Program-made: the position numbers and the translations under genes
The notes under the pieces: generated by a model
The model's database searches: none
Told to the model about the DNA's origin: nothing
The model's input: only the letters and a program-made list of their open reading frames with translations
Shown: piece by piece, positions 3,153 to 61,451 of the stretch
How positions within the stretch are numbered: the first letter of the stretch is position 1
How the letters are laid out: every line of letters begins with the position of its first letter
Assembly (NCBI GenBank): GCA_944326155.1
Contig: CALVCV010000001.1
Coordinates: 121,184-185,183 of the forward strand
Direction of reading: 5' to 3'
DNA: 64,000 nucleotides
Origin: an uncultured Bacilli bacterium
GTDB taxonomy: Bacteria > Bacillota_I > Bacilli_A > ML615J-28 > CAG-313

Positions 3153-3184
3153 AAAAAATAGAAGTTAAAAACTTCTATTTTTTT
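3153..3184. terminator. bidirectional intrinsic terminator between the small + gene and spo0A
   Basis: Hairpin AATAGAAGTT-aaa-AACTTCTATT (3157..3179), flanked by an A-run on the left and TTTTT on the right. Confidence 0.7.
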
Positions 3185-3968
3185 ACGCTAGATATCTCAT
3201 TTTCTTTTGACGTTTATGTTCTAAACGAAGTTTATCAGCAATCATAGCAATAAATTCAGAGTTCGTAGGTTTAGATTTATTATAACTGATTGTATAGCTA
3301 AAAATATCACTAATTGCGTCAACATTACCCCTTACCCAAGCAATTTCAATTGCATGACGTATTGCCCTTTCCACTCTTGAGGAAGTTGTTCCAAAAGATA
3401 TAGCAATTTCTGGATATAAAACTTTTGTAATTGAACCTAATATCTCAACATTATCATAAACCATTGCAATAGCTTCTCGTAAATACATATAACCTTTAAT
3501 ATGAGCTGGTACACCAACCTCATGTAATATCGAAGTAATTTCGCTATCTAAATCGGCATCAATATCATTTTTTACACTTTCTTCGCCTTCAGTGGTCATT
3601 CCTAAAATCAGTTGATATAATTTTTTGCCATCTACAGGTTTCATAATGATGTAATCCACATTTAATTGATTTAATTTTGTATTTACATAATTACTAATAA
3701 ATTGTGTCATCACAATAATGCGACGAGGTTGATGATATAATGTGGTATCTTTTTTAATGTTTTCAATTAAATTAATACCATCTACACCATTTAAGAATAA
3801 ATCAACAATAAGTACATCAACTTGTGTTACTTTTAAAGTGTTATAAAGATTGGCTTCGTTATTGTATGTACCTATTAAATTAATTTCTTCATATTTTTTT
3901 AGGAATGTACTAATTCCAGGTTCGTTATCATCGGTATTTTCTACGACAACCATTTTCAATTTTTGCAT
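3183..3968 (-). CDS. spo0A: sporulation master response regulator Spo0A
   Basis: Receiver domain with an acidic pocket (TDDNEP), the phospho-acceptor Asp in VLIVDLFL, and conserved Lys in IIMKPVD. The C-terminal Spo0A-specific DNA-binding domain carries the signature [16 protein letters not shown]. Confidence 0.9.
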
Positions 3969-24346: not shown

Positions 24347-24955
24347 ATGATTTCAAAAAAAGATTTACTTATTAAAACAAATATTTCGTATGGTCAACTA
24401 TATCGGTGGAAACGTCAAGGGTTAATTCCTGAAGAATGGTTTGTTAAAACTAGTTCTATAACAGGACAAGTTACTTTCTTTGATGAAGATTTAATAATAC
24501 CTAGAATCCAAAAAATCTTAGATTTAAAAGATGAATTTTCTATTGATGAAATCAAACAAATTTTAAACCCTTCGCCAAGCGAAATTACCTTTTCCCTCAG
24601 TAAACTAAATAAATTACAATGCTTTGATGGACGAATTTTAAAAAAACTTGTTGATCATGAAACCGATTTGAATATTAACGAAGTAGTAATTTTGTACGCT
24701 TTATCTAAAGCACGAAAGGATATTGAAAAACATTTTTATAAAATTAAATTTGATATTACACTTTCTGAATTTAAAAATTTTGATTTTACTAACGCGAAAA
24801 TGGCACTTATTTCTAAAAAAAGAGAAGGATATATTCTTTTTTTCAATGATTCATTGATTGCTTCAGATAGTGAACTTGAAATCAAACATTATAATTTAAG
24901 TGATTTACAACAAGAACTTTTAGAAATTATTCGCAAATTATCTTATCGAAATTAA
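24347..24955 (+). CDS. YhbD-like protein with an N-terminal MerR-type helix-turn-helix (DUF4004-like)
   Basis: 202 aa. N-terminal KKDLLIKTNISYGQLYRWKRQGLIPEEWF resembles a MerR-type HTH. Followed by a bactofilin-like gene, as in the Bacillus yhbD-yhbE-yhbF arrangement. The family name is recalled from memory. Confidence 0.45.
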   Translation: MISKKDLLIKTNISYGQLYRWKRQGLIPEEWFVKTSSITGQVTFFDEDLIIPRIQKILDLKDEFSIDEIKQILNPSPSEITFSLSKLNKLQCFDGRILKKLVDHETDLNINEVVILYALSKARKDIEKHFYKIKFDITLSEFKNFDFTNAKMALISKKREGYILFFNDSLIASDSELEIKHYNLSDLQQELLEIIRKLSYRN

Positions 24956-24964
24956 GGAGGCAAT

Positions 24965-25660
24965 ATGGAAGATTTAAAAATTAGTGGTTATGGTAAAGCA
25001 AATGGAGGCAATTTTAAAAAAATCGTCATTACAGGCTTTGGCGAAATTTTTGAGGATGCAATTTGTAGCGACTTTCATGGTTCTGGTTCAGTTAAAATTC
25101 GTGGCAAATTACAAACTGAAAATTTAAAATATAATGGGGATGTCAGTGTCGATAATAATCTAATTACAAATACTTGTGATGTCACAGGTAAACTTAGTGT
25201 AAAAGGAAATATTATATCAAATAATATTTCGATATTCGGTGATATAGGTATTCTTGGCAATTGTAGCAACAGCAATTTCATTAAAATAAATGGAAATTTA
25301 TCATGTTATGGTAATATTACTTGTGAAAGTTTTAAATTAAATGGAGGATCAATTTCTATTAATGAAGAATTATGTGCTGAAATAGTCGAAATTAAAAGCA
25401 CACAAATTGATATAAATGAAATTCATGCTACCAATGTTGTAATTAGCAAACCATTTATCCTTAGTATGAAGAAAAAGCACATAAATATTAATGAAATTGA
25501 ATGTACATCAATTGTTGCTGCTCAGTTAAACTGTAAAAAACTATGTGCACAAAATGTAAAATTATCAAAGAACTGTATTGTAGATACATTAGAATATAGT
25601 GGAAACCTAGACCTTGAAGATGGCTGCATCATAAAAGAACTCATTAAAATTGAAAAATAG
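24965..25660 (+). CDS. bactofilin-like polymer-forming cytoskeletal protein (YhbE/YhbF-like)
   Basis: 231 aa of repetitive beta-helix-type segments: G.V.V.N..I.G...V.GK. Asn/Gly/Ile/Val-rich periodicity. GGAGG RBS. Confidence 0.55.
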   Translation: MEDLKISGYGKANGGNFKKIVITGFGEIFEDAICSDFHGSGSVKIRGKLQTENLKYNGDVSVDNNLITNTCDVTGKLSVKGNIISNNISIFGDIGILGNCSNSNFIKINGNLSCYGNITCESFKLNGGSISINEELCAEIVEIKSTQIDINEIHATNVVISKPFILSMKKKHININEIECTSIVAAQLNCKKLCAQNVKLSKNCIVDTLEYSGNLDLEDGCIIKELIKIEK

Positions 25661-57501: not shown

Positions 57502-57550
57502 TGTTTCTTATATATTATATCACTTTTTGCATTTTATAACAAATGAAATG

Positions 57551-57584
57551 AAAAAAATGCACTAAATTTTTGGTGCATTTTTTT
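57551..57584. terminator. bidirectional intrinsic terminator
   Basis: AAAAAAATGCAC-taaatttttg-GTGCATTTTTTT. Follows the 57592..58710 gene on the minus strand. Confidence 0.7.
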
Positions 57585-57591
57585 CATTCTA

Positions 57592-58710
57592 TTATGAATT
57601 TTTAAATAAAATTACAAAAACAACGACAAAAATAAGCATAATAATGAAAATTAGAATTGAAACTTTTGCAATTGAAATTGGAACTTTACCAGTAATTTTT
57701 CCCGTCTCACCATTTGAAATAAAACGATAGTCTTTGTTCGCATATTTGTAGGTACCAATCCAAATAGGAATCAACACATATTTATACTTTATACTATTAA
57801 ATGTTGTATTAACATTCAAATAACTTACAACATCATGATTATAACCACGTAAAATTTCTCTTTTAATGATGGCATTCATTCTAATTTTCGCATTATCCCA
57901 TCCCATATTTAGACGAACAACATAATGTTCTGAACTAAAACCTGCTAAATACCTTTTATCATATTCGTATGAATTATTCGTATTAAAGGGTGAGATAGCA
58001 TTGATTTCGCTTTGGCTTATTTTAGATCCAGCGTTGACAATTAAATCATCAAAAGTCACTTGTTTACTACCACGTACATAAAAGTATCTAACTTCAGTTA
58101 TCGTTCTTCGATTTTTTCCAGATCCTACTGTTCTTGTATAATGTTTTCCTAATTTACCATCATATATCGAAAAGGTATTGCTATCAAATGTCCAAATAGG
58201 TAAATATACTCCACGCAATACAAGTTTAGGAATATTTTTTTTAACTTTAGATGGAACAAAAAATTTCTTTTTAATCCATAATGAATAGTTCTGTTTAGTA
58301 TTAGATTCAGAAATTTGAAAAGGAATTACGCGATGTGGTTTAATACCAACTAACTCATTTGTTTCTACTACTTGATTTGAGCCACAAAAAGGACATGTGA
58401 TACTGATTGCATTAGTATCTACAATATTATTGGCACCACAATTATCGCAATGAACAACTTTGGTTTCTTCACCCCAACTATTATCTTCTTTTGTGCCTTC
58501 AAAAAAGTCATTTTCTTCTTTACCTGCTTTTCCATCAAGTGTAATTTCTAATCCGCAATATTCACAATGTAAGGCACCTTTTTCTGGTAAATAACTAAGT
58601 GGTGCACCACAACTTGGACAACTATAATCTTCCGTTTTACAATTGCCTTCATCTAATTTTAAATTTTTATCTTCATCCATAATTATAATGCTTTTCCACA
58701 GTTTGTACAA
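57592..58710 (-). CDS. double zinc-ribbon protein with a C-terminal TM anchor (YdjG/YdjH-like)
   Basis: 372 aa. CPSCG...CEYCG and CDNCG...CPFCG ribbons, a 220-aa domain, then TM segment ISIAKVSILIFIIMLIFVVVFVILF. The start overlaps the upstream SPFH gene by 28 nt. Confidence 0.5.
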   Translation of the reverse strand: MYKLWKSIIIMDEDKNLKLDEGNCKTEDYSCPSCGAPLSYLPEKGALHCEYCGLEITLDGKAGKEENDFFEGTKEDNSWGEETKVVHCDNCGANNIVDTNAISITCPFCGSNQVVETNELVGIKPHRVIPFQISESNTKQNYSLWIKKKFFVPSKVKKNIPKLVLRGVYLPIWTFDSNTFSIYDGKLGKHYTRTVGSGKNRRTITEVRYFYVRGSKQVTFDDLIVNAGSKISQSEINAISPFNTNNSYEYDKRYLAGFSSEHYVVRLNMGWDNAKIRMNAIIKREILRGYNHDVVSYLNVNTTFNSIKYKYVLIPIWIGTYKYANKDYRFISNGETGKITGKVPISIAKVSILIFIIMLIFVVVFVILFKNS

Positions 58711-59744
58711 AATTTAGCACTTGAATCAACTTGTGTGCCACAATTTGGACAAAATTTTTTTGTTTGAACAGGTGTTCCACAATTTGCACAAAACTTTGCA
58801 CCTGGTGTTAGAGGTTGTTTACAATTTAAGCATACTCCTGCTGTATCAGCGGTTGCACTAACTGCTTGTTGCTGTGCATTCTGCTGCGGATTCATGGCAT
58901 TCATCATTGCATTACCCATTGCCATGCCTGCACCAAAACCAACTCCCATTTCAGCGATACCACCACCGTTAGGATTGTTTGCAGCATCTCTAATTGCTTG
59001 CGCAGTTTGATATTGAGTAAATTCATTTAATTTGCCACCAAGAGCGCCAAGTGATGATCTTTGGTCAATTGCTTTTTCTACTTCTTCTGGTAAGGAAACA
59101 TTTTCAATAACCAAATTAACTAACTTCATGCCAATTTTAGTGAACGTACCTTGCATTTTTTCTTTAATAATTTCACTTAATTCTATATATTTGGCCGGAA
59201 TATCTAAAATAGGTATTTTAATTTCACCAATAGCATCTGAAAAACCACTTACAACAATGCTCTTAAAATATTCTCTTAAAGACTCTGTTGAATAATTTCG
59301 ATTCGTACCAAAAATTTCTCGCATAAAAACAGGGGCATCTTCAATCTTATAAGAATATACACCACGAGCTCCTACTCTTACAATACCAAAATCGTTATCT
59401 CTGATACTTACTTTAGACGCAGTTCCCCATTTTTGATTAATAAATTGCTTTGTATTTACATAATATACTTCAGCTTTAAAAGGTGAATCAAAGCCATATT
59501 TCCAACTAGCAAGTTTTGTTATAATTGGCATATTATTCGTTGTAAGTTTGTGCTCTCCTTCTCCATAAACATCACAAATTTGACCACTGCTAACAAGCAT
59601 TGCTACTTGCGAAGGACGTACAATTAATTGACACCCATTCATAATTTCATCACGATCAGACATTGGATATCTATATACCAATGTTTCAGTTGAACTATCT
59701 TCCCATTCAATTACTTTTAATAATTGTCTTTTAATAAATCCCAT
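58683..59744 (-). CDS. SPFH/Band-7-like domain protein (YdjI-like) with three C-terminal zinc ribbons
   Basis: 353 aa. N-terminal SPFH-like domain, a Gly/Ala/Asn/Met/Gln-rich linker, then CLNCK...CANCG, CPNCG and CTNCG ribbons. Confidence 0.55.
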   Translation of the reverse strand: MGFIKRQLLKVIEWEDSSTETLVYRYPMSDRDEIMNGCQLIVRPSQVAMLVSSGQICDVYGEGEHKLTTNNMPIITKLASWKYGFDSPFKAEVYYVNTKQFINQKWGTASKVSIRDNDFGIVRVGARGVYSYKIEDAPVFMREIFGTNRNYSTESLREYFKSIVVSGFSDAIGEIKIPILDIPAKYIELSEIIKEKMQGTFTKIGMKLVNLVIENVSLPEEVEKAIDQRSSLGALGGKLNEFTQYQTAQAIRDAANNPNGGGIAEMGVGFGAGMAMGNAMMNAMNPQQNAQQQAVSATADTAGVCLNCKQPLTPGAKFCANCGTPVQTKKFCPNCGTQVDSSAKFCTNCGKAL

Positions 59745-59763
59745 TTTTTATCCTCCATTTTTC

Positions 59764-61305
59764 TTATTTATTTTTAAATTCAAGGGTTGCATCTACTGCT
59801 ATTTTCCAACCTTTTATCAATTCTTGACGTTTTTTATCATCTAGTTGACGCATAAATATTTTTTCAACTTGATGAAATCTCTTAATTTCTTCTTCACTTT
59901 CATAAAACCCTACTGTAAGGGCTGCAAGATACATGGCACCAAGGGCAGTTGTTTCTAAACATGTTGGTCTTACAATTTTAGCATCCAACAAATTTGCTTG
60001 AAATTGCATCATATAATTATTGACTGAAGCTCCACCATCAACACCTAAATAATTAATTGGAAAACCTGATTCAGCAATCATAACTTCCATAACATCTCTT
60101 GCTTGATACGGACTTGCTTCTATTGCCGCAACAGTAATATGATCTTTTGTTGTAGCTCTAGTAATTCCAAAAATAGCTCCTCTTGCATCATTGTCCCAAT
60201 AAGGGGTTCCAAGACCTACAAATGCAGGTACAAAATATATTCCCCCACTAGGATTTTTACCTCTTATGGATTTTTCACAATCACTTGATTCTTTAAATAA
60301 TTCCATGCCATCTCGTAGCCACTGAATCGCTGAACCTGATACAAAAACTGATCCTTCTAATGCATATTTAACCTTACCATTAAGTCCCCAAGCAATTGTT
60401 GTAAGTAAACCTTTATCTGAATAAATAATTTTATCATTTGTATTCATTAAAATAAAACAACCCGTTCCATAAGTACTCTTTGTACTTCCTTCGTCAAAAC
60501 AACATTGTCCAAACAAAGCAGCTTGTTGATCACCAATTAGTGAAGCAATAGGTATTTTTTCAAAATGTTTATCAATACTTGTAAGTGCTTTTGCAAAACC
60601 AAAAATGTGACCACTTGGATACACTTTAGGTAATATTTGTTTAGGAATATCAAAATAATTTAACAATTCTTCATCCCACTTTAATTCTATAATATTATAA
60701 ACAAGCGTTCTTGAAGCATTACTATAATCAGTAGCATGTATCTCACCTTTTGTTAGTTTCCAAAGTAAATAGGTATCAATCGTACCAAATAAAATATTGC
60801 CCTTATCAGCTTCTTCTTTCACATTTTTGACATTATCAAAAATCCATTTAATTTTACTTGCTGAAAAATATGGATTAATAATTAAGCCTGTTTTTTTGTG
60901 AAATTTCTCATTTAAACCCTTTTTTATGAGGTCATCACAAATTGCTTGTGACTGTCTAGATTGCCAAACAATAGCATTGTAGACAACTTTACCAGTATTT
61001 TTATTCCATAAAATTGTTGTTTCTCTTTGATTGGTAATGCCAATTGCCATAATATTGGTAGCTTTCAAATTAGCCATATTCATTGCATTTTTTATCGTTT
61101 GGACTGTTAATTCCCAAATTTCTTCTGGATTGTGTTCCACCCAACCATTTTTAGGGCAGATTTGAGTAAATTCCATTTGACTTTTGGCAACAATAGAGGT
61201 TTTAGAATCAAATATAATCGTTCTTGTACTAGTAGTTCCTTGATCAATCGTCAAGATGTATTTATTCACATTTTTCATAGTAATTTTTCCTATTAATAAA
61301 TTCAT
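59764..61305 (-). CDS. glpK: glycerol kinase
   Basis: 513 aa. FGGY family: YILTIDQGTTSTR and GDQQAALFGQ. Confidence 0.9.
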   Translation of the reverse strand: MNLLIGKITMKNVNKYILTIDQGTTSTRTIIFDSKTSIVAKSQMEFTQICPKNGWVEHNPEEIWELTVQTIKNAMNMANLKATNIMAIGITNQRETTILWNKNTGKVVYNAIVWQSRQSQAICDDLIKKGLNEKFHKKTGLIINPYFSASKIKWIFDNVKNVKEEADKGNILFGTIDTYLLWKLTKGEIHATDYSNASRTLVYNIIELKWDEELLNYFDIPKQILPKVYPSGHIFGFAKALTSIDKHFEKIPIASLIGDQQAALFGQCCFDEGSTKSTYGTGCFILMNTNDKIIYSDKGLLTTIAWGLNGKVKYALEGSVFVSGSAIQWLRDGMELFKESSDCEKSIRGKNPSGGIYFVPAFVGLGTPYWDNDARGAIFGITRATTKDHITVAAIEASPYQARDVMEVMIAESGFPINYLGVDGGASVNNYMMQFQANLLDAKIVRPTCLETTALGAMYLAALTVGFYESEEEIKRFHQVEKIFMRQLDDKKRQELIKGWKIAVDATLEFKNK

Positions 61306-61451
61306 TTATATTATAACATATTTTTAAATTTTTCAAAAGAAAAAACACTTAGTAGATTTTTCTTTCATTATATAATTTACATTTTTGCAAGGTAAAGTAA
61401 AAGCCTCAAATTTAGAATGAATTTGAGACTTATTATTTTTTTAACTTATTT

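Follow-up and report, generated by a model that had tools for sequence, protein, structure and literature searches.

A YdjI-like SPFH gene paired with a YdjG-like zinc-ribbon membrane protein gene, with no pspA or ydjH nearby, in an uncultured Bacilli bacterium

The Bacillus proteins YdjG, YdjH and YdjI, since renamed SamG, SamH and SamI, are encoded together with PspA in an operon (PspA-SamGHI) connected with membrane stress. Functional work on this SPFH subfamily comes entirely from the four-gene operon of B. subtilis, where YdjH is thought to be the direct anchor and signalling partner and PspA the effector. A stretch of 64,000 nucleotides (nt) from an uncultured Bacilli bacterium (contig CALVCV010000001.1, positions 121,184 to 185,183; hereafter the 64-kb window) holds what looks like a natural version of the system with neither YdjH nor PspA encoded locally: an SPFH gene (gene A) followed directly by the gene of a zinc-ribbon membrane protein (gene B). 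The two are adjacent open reading frames (ORFs) on the minus strand, confirmed where an earlier annotation of this DNA (the original prediction) had placed them. The question is what such a pair may do by itself, and the answer that we favour, with moderate confidence and by analogy with B. subtilis, is that it forms a two-gene membrane-scaffold module, in which the tail-anchored gene B protein would recruit a soluble SPFH oligomer of gene A to the inner face of the membrane.

The N-terminal domain of gene A is readily identified. Specifically, the PF13421 (Band_7_1) profile matches with an E value of 1.4e-77 and 260.5 bits (cut-off 24), over profile positions 1-210 of 211. In an AlphaFold2 model made with 54 homologues (mean predicted local distance difference test score, pLDDT, of 76) the SPFH stretch mostly scores 80-93 and the linker below 55; only short helices are modelled past residue 233, and the top solved structures found by Foldseek with this model are stomatin, prohibitin, HflK/C, erlin and flotillin (E 5e-10 to 1e-6). 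The linker, with 14 A, 9 G, 8 N, 8 Q and 6 M among its 65 residues, lines up with a corresponding G/M/N/Q stretch in Bacillus YdjI. Both the SPFH/Band-7 domain and the low-complexity linker had been expected by the original prediction, and the profile search that it proposed as a check favours the pairing. It had also counted three C-terminal ribbons, where there are two: the CxxC motifs start at residues 305, 319, 332 and 346, PF12773 (DZR) spans residues 305-350 with E 4e-12, and PF13240 matches twice. No transmembrane (TM) segment is found in gene A, whose 19-residue Kyte-Doolittle maximum is 1.24 and whose model contains no hydrophobic helix. One database protein (P0270) is 100% identical to gene A, and among its 120 nearest homologues all 120 carry PF13421 together with zinc-ribbon families and all 120 have four CxxC motifs in the tail. 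Against Bacillus stercoris YdjI, BLASTP gives 29% identity from residues 1-339 to 1-322 (E 7e-45).

For gene B, no Pfam or NCBIfam model scores above its cut-off and only short ribbon matches appear; PHROGs returns ribbon-level matches only for the pair, and sequence searches of the PDB find no relative with a solved structure. A BLASTP alignment with B. stercoris YdjG shows 28% identity from residues 19-341 to 5-316 (E 3e-42), and the multiple alignment with YdjG is collinear through the eight invariant Cys, an NGxTGK..P.S motif and the TM segment. All eight ribbon Cys are invariant in 63 homologues and aligned with the Cys of Bacillus YdjG. The AlphaFold2 model is confident (pLDDT 88.7; predicted template modelling score, pTM, 0.81), with YpeB as the best solved structural match to the central domain, which belongs with the YpeB-related, NTF2-like alpha+beta folds, although the YpeB/PepSY-type matches (PDB 5boi and 2gu3) are weak, 75-78 residues being aligned at 12-17% identity. 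There is a single TM segment, with a 19-residue Kyte-Doolittle value of 3.6 at residues 340-358 inside the modelled C-terminal helix. Because the ribbons are N-terminal and the sole TM segment lies at the extreme C-terminus, gene B is predicted to be tail-anchored, with the ribbons and the tandem YpeB/PepSY-like domain all on the cytoplasmic side. The layout foreseen for the downstream protein (two N-terminal ribbons, a domain of about 220 residues, a single C-terminal TM segment) is therefore recovered, and structure prediction, which had been suggested as a check on both proteins, yields an SPFH fold for gene A and YpeB as best match for gene B.

Judged by their sequences, gene A is a full-length homologue of YdjI/SamI (SPFH domain, no anchor, linker and ribbon, homology from end to end) and gene B a full-length homologue of YdjG/SamG (two ribbons, central domain, C-terminal TM segment, homology from end to end), which is a stronger tie than the resemblance to the Bacillus ydjG-ydjH-ydjI module that had been put forward. 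The family of gene B is a large one: a profile search of 1.84 billion representative proteins gave 10,353 matches with E <= 1e-3, including 2,806 with E <= 1e-30.

The junction between the two genes depends on which start codon is assigned to gene B. A 28-nt overlap had been proposed, which needs a start at TTG 58710 (57592-58710); this start, upstream of which no Shine-Dalgarno-like sequence is visible, was rejected, and the overlap is a product of longest-ORF calling. The junction reads TAAttATG, with the ATG at 58680 standing 2 nt past the TAA of gene A. This ATG is preferred because (i) a protein 99% identical to gene B (P0001) is likewise 362 residues long and relatives are called at about that length, (ii) the first residues read from it align with the N-termini of homologues in the multiple alignment and (iii) an identical junction is present in related contigs (L015 and L023). 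The two genes are tightly coupled despite the lack of overlap, and among 23 two-gene clusters, 19 place the ATG -4 to +13 nt from the preceding stop codon. The 2-nt gap, together with a weak ribosome-binding site in front of gene B, suggests that translation of the two proteins is coupled.

The hairpin that follows gene B has a minimum free energy of -20.1 kcal/mol (z -6.1; none of 200 shuffles folds as well); it was missed by a simple consensus terminator scan and revealed by folding. As this strong hairpin and its U-run come directly after gene B, the transcription unit probably ends there. At the other end, the glpK (glycerol kinase) stop codon and the start of gene A are only 19 nt apart, so that the pair is probably cotranscribed with glpK in a unit beginning upstream of that gene. 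A sigma-70 consensus promoter scan performed no better than on shuffled sequence (24 sites against 24.3 expected). Promoter-like and terminator-like sites were observed upstream of glpK, at about 61300-61430. The coordinates of all features are collected in Table 1.

Table 1. Features of the gene pair and its borders (positions counted from the first letter of the window)
Feature	Position	Strand	Remarks
Gene A	58683..59744	-	353 aa, soluble SPFH protein, YdjI/SamI homologue
SPFH/Band-7 domain of gene A, residues 23-233	59046..59678	-	PF13421, AlphaFold2 pLDDT, Foldseek
Low-complexity linker of gene A, residues 239-303	58836..59030	-	rich in A, G, N, Q, M
Double zinc ribbon of gene A, residues 305-353	58686..58832	-	four CxxC, equal to two 4-Cys ribbons
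Gene B	57592..58680	-	362 aa from ATG at 58680; predicted tail-anchored zinc-ribbon membrane protein, YdjG/SamG homologue
Zinc ribbon 1 of gene B, C21 C24 C39 C42	58555..58620	-	ribbon family matches weak
Zinc ribbon 2 of gene B, C78 C81 C96 C99	58384..58449	-	PF08271 sub-threshold, residues 88-111
Central alpha+beta domain of gene B, residues ~112-331	57688..58347	-	two units, each with a helix packed on a long curved sheet
C-terminal TM helix of gene B, residues 337-361	57598..57672	-	one residue after the helix
GGAGG Shine-Dalgarno	59752..59756	-	7 nt 5' of gene A ATG; read directly from the sequence
glpK stop codon	59764-59766		gene A ATG 19 nt downstream (gap 59745-59763)
Intrinsic-terminator-like hairpin, then U-run	57536..57595	-	directly 3' of gene B

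For comparison, the B. subtilis-group pspA-ydjG-ydjH-ydjI locus was retrieved through the published ydjG primer sequence (PMC8581546), and its products score as PspA_IM30 (PspA), Zn_Ribbon_TF (YdjG), TPM_phosphatase (YdjH) and Band_7_1 plus ribbon (YdjI). The products of this operon already show these features, YdjI carrying a low-complexity stretch and one C-terminal ribbon (two CxxC), and YdjG a pair of ribbons, the same central domain and a C-terminal TM segment; ribbon on the SPFH protein and ribbons with TM segment on YdjG have likewise been described (PMC8581546; PMC11237479). For this reason the idea that ribbon and TM functions had been redistributed between the two proteins of the window does not hold; both have the architecture that is usual in their families.

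The other two components of the operon were sought with their Bacillus sequences and with family models. Neither PspA nor YdjH was found by phmmer in the window (best PspA E 1.4), and Pfam scans of the 10 window ORFs of PspA- or TPM-like size gave no PF04012 and no PF04536; the lack of a pspA neighbour noted at the outset thus stands within the window. Across 90 related non-Bacillus loci (within about 10 kb), phmmer likewise detected no homologue of PspA or YdjH, neither of the two Pfam families recurs in a tally of 119 neighbouring ORFs from 23 loci, and precomputed Pfam annotation of four distinct contexts contains neither the PspA nor the TPM family. Two loci from Tissierellales and Epulopiscium (L095 and L096) acted as positive controls, in which Bacillus-type YdjG is found in pspA-G-TPM-SPFH operons. 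The comparison of gene neighbourhoods that the original prediction had called for, in search of pspA elsewhere, gave no pspA in the 90 non-Bacillus loci and pspA beside the Bacillus-type YdjG of the two controls. The pair departs from the pspA-ydjGHI operon in three defining features, namely PspA, TPM and gene order.

Conservation of the pairing was assessed in the same 90 loci; grouping their gene B proteins at 90% identity gives 53 clusters, 41 of them informative and 12 too short. Of the 41 informative clusters, 35 have an SPFH gene immediately 5' of the YdjG-like gene and in the same orientation, so that the alternative of orthologues split into independent genes, named beforehand as a test of co-occurrence, is not what is seen. 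The order is also found on plasmids of Vibrio coralliilyticus (L097, NZ_CP048695.1) and Comamonas odontotermitis (L099, NZ_CP083452.1 161458-163938), the SPFH protein of the latter being annotated as a fusion with a helix-turn-helix domain. On an Enterococcus gallinarum megaplasmid (L098, NZ_CP116511.1 22417-25594) the SPFH and YdjG-like genes are accompanied by a TPM gene with no PspA, an arrangement intermediate between the pair of the window and the Bacillus operon. Bacillus-type YdjG proteins (P0390-P0509) are 67-76% identical and range from Bacillaceae genera other than the subtilis group to Tissierellales and Epulopiscium; the four-gene type stands apart as a well-conserved subfamily, in which the genes are ordered differently and YdjI bears a single ribbon. 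The two-gene unit thus has a wide distribution, and the Bacillus operon represents one elaborated form of it.

Two further arrangements were seen around YdjG-like genes. A DUF1858 protein of about 64-70 residues with an HCLGC motif is encoded between the SPFH and YdjG-like genes in at least 12 of the paired clusters, which number 35 (e.g. L009:9787-9981, L014:9802-9999, L055:9676-9891 and L064:9653-9895); the window lacks this three-gene variant. The six clusters that lack the SPFH gene are on high-GC contigs, including L073:9902-11047, L083:9656-11029, L087:8891-9985 and L093, and just upstream of the YdjG-like gene at L073:9021-9761 and L083:8693-9421 there is a protein of about 245 residues whose N-terminal half reads as hydrophobic.

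How the pair may work is suggested by the behaviour of its counterparts. The YdjI protein of B. subtilis is soluble, and its foci at the membrane require both YdjG and YdjH (PMC8581546); it is from this analogy that recruitment by gene B is proposed. The gene B protein would sit in the membrane by its C-terminal helix, with the remainder in the cytoplasm, and would bring the anchorless, soluble gene A protein to the cytoplasmic face of the membrane, where the latter protein would self-assemble into an SPFH oligomer, as other SPFH proteins do, and could organise or stabilise the membrane under stress. As no YdjH is encoded here, gene B would have to contact gene A directly or via an unlinked partner, and a PspA-type effector would be either encoded elsewhere or dispensable. 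A module working with no such effector is plausible, since samI phenotypes are independent of PspA according to a 2026 preprint, which also describes SamI as restraining SamG-SamH signalling (bioRxiv 10.64898/2026.02.06.704340).

Several points weigh against this recruitment model. More specifically, (i) the pairing is not obligatory, 6 of the 41 informative clusters having no SPFH gene nearby; (ii) binding between gene A and gene B is itself drawn from the B. subtilis analogy, and the direct two-hybrid partner reported for YdjI in that species is YdjH, absent here, and not YdjG (PMC8581546); (iii) the cytoplasmic orientation of gene B is deduced from the position of its ribbons and TM segment; (iv) a physiological role in membrane fluidity or stress signalling would be extrapolated from proteins that are 28-29% identical and (v) the absence of partners concerns 64 kb of genome, and a distal pspA or TPM gene is possible.

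The last of these points leads to the strongest of the other explanations, which does not fully exclude recruitment by gene B. The pair could be one half of a split Psp-type system whose PspA and TPM genes are encoded at a distance. YdjI is required for PspA foci in B. subtilis (PMC8581546), for another band-7/flotillin system it has been proposed that abbreviated operons lacking PspA may work with homologues of PspA from other loci (PMC11237479), and the TPM gene beside the PspA-less pair of E. gallinarum indicates that components can be gained and lost. Such a split is nevertheless considered rather unlikely, given that neither gene was found in the window or around the related non-Bacillus loci, and that the four-gene type, with its other gene order and its single YdjI ribbon, forms a subfamily of its own.

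Phage defence offers another context, in which SPFH and ribbon proteins would sense infection and disturb the membrane as an anti-phage or abortive-infection module. Phage SPP1 induces the pspA-ydjGHI operon of B. subtilis, and YdjI is recovered on purification together with a CBASS (cyclic-oligonucleotide-based anti-phage signalling system) cyclase-PspA species (PMC11153139); restriction-modification genes flank one four-gene operon (L095), and a few distant homologues occur on phage-labelled contigs. The surroundings of the pair, however, are not those of a variable island: its flanks are housekeeping genes (glpK, nadABC and an ABC transporter) that are syntenic in relatives at 48-78% identity. 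PADLOC gives no significant match (best E 0.16 for gene A and 0.014 for gene B, both over ribbon-only stretches), the IMG/VR scan returned no relatives, and matches were found in only 8 of 50,697 phage records and 12 of 72,556 plasmid records, all below 33% identity. The link to phage-defence islands mentioned in the original prediction consequently finds no support, and a defence module appears highly improbable.

It is equally hard to credit that gene B is a nucleic-acid-binding or transcription-related ribbon protein with no functional relation to the SPFH gene. Its ribbons do match TFIIB, RpoP and PriA models weakly, and homologues carry database names such as TFIIB-type, RPC12/RpoP or 'phage replication protein', but all of these matches are below curated cut-offs and only 25-40 residues long, the remainder of the protein is a predicted membrane-anchored YpeB-like domain, and the conserved, tight pairing with an SPFH gene argues for a common function. 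A tie to glycerol metabolism or lipid-precursor supply through the probable cotranscription with glpK, to which the short distance between the two genes and the presence of glpK directly upstream in the closest relatives might point, is given very little probability, because glpK holds that position in only 6 of about 25 informative clusters and not in the Clostridia-type, Vibrio, Comamonas or Enterococcus loci, and reads as synteny limited to one lineage. On the same ground of lineage-limited synteny, a functional link of the pair to glpK or nadABC was rejected.

The wider window gives some indication of the host. Its GC content is about 28%, and the nearest relatives are metagenome-assembled genomes labelled Bacilli or Acholeplasmataceae, from gut metagenomes. 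A Spo0A homologue (Response_reg and Spo0A_C, E 2.9e-42) is encoded at 3183-3968 on the minus strand and suggests an endospore-lineage Firmicute rather than an Acholeplasma-like mollicute, despite the Acholeplasmataceae labels on relatives of the pair. At 24347-25660 on the plus strand, opposite to most window genes, a DUF4004 protein is followed directly by a protein that has a sub-threshold bactofilin match (25.7 bits; cut-off 27.9). An Rfam scan of the window found one tRNA only.

The recruitment model has a broader and more tentative extension, according to which the SPFH-YdjG-like pair would be an ancestral, self-sufficient core whose ribbon protein binds the SPFH protein directly and needs neither PspA nor TPM. 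On this view, individual lineages would have added further components, namely PspA with TPM in Bacillus, only TPM in Enterococcus and, in many Clostridia-type loci, DUF1858. If the pair is indeed self-sufficient, the YdjG-YdjI contact would be the conserved core of the system, and two-gene units, which are frequent in gut Firmicutes and occur also in Proteobacteria, would offer a simpler model for the membrane recruitment of an anchorless SPFH protein. The gain is incremental, as both families, their architectures and their mutual link are already in the literature; the pair, known from its sequence, is a reduced variant of a known system and is common in databases.

Comparison with characterized systems places the pair closest to PspA-SamGHI. 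Gene A resembles YdjI/SamI in its PF13421 domain, G/M/N/Q linker, C-terminal ribbon and lack of a TM segment, and gene B resembles YdjG/SamG in its two N-terminal 4-Cys ribbons, YpeB-related domain and C-terminal TM segment. The differences are that neither pspA nor a TPM-domain ydjH is found in the 64-kb window, that the order is I then G rather than pspA-G-H-I, that gene A ends in two ribbons (four CxxC) as against one in Bacillus YdjI, and that identity is only 28-29%. Moreover, the pair is probably on the glpK transcript, and the Bacillus operon has a sigma-W promoter. The YpeB/PepSY proteins differ in another way from gene B, whose domain is predicted to be cytoplasmic and is joined at its N-terminus to zinc ribbons.

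QmcA-YbbJ, FloA/FloT-NfeD and HflK/C-FtsH share with the pair an SPFH gene beside the gene of a small membrane protein, the common SPFH fold and an expected membrane-associated oligomer. In those systems, however, the SPFH protein has its own TM or hairpin anchor, a long coiled coil and an NfeD-family or protease partner, whereas gene A is soluble, has no such coiled coil and is accompanied by a predicted tail-anchored ribbon protein. The features of an SPFH-NfeD operon were not found at this locus, where the neighbours of gene A are glpK and the YdjG-like gene and gene A has no hydrophobic segment. Neither PspB nor PspC of the E. coli PspABC system has a homologue in the pair, and PspA is absent from the window and the related loci, but the logic may be analogous, in that membrane proteins recruit or regulate a peripheral oligomer at the stressed membrane.

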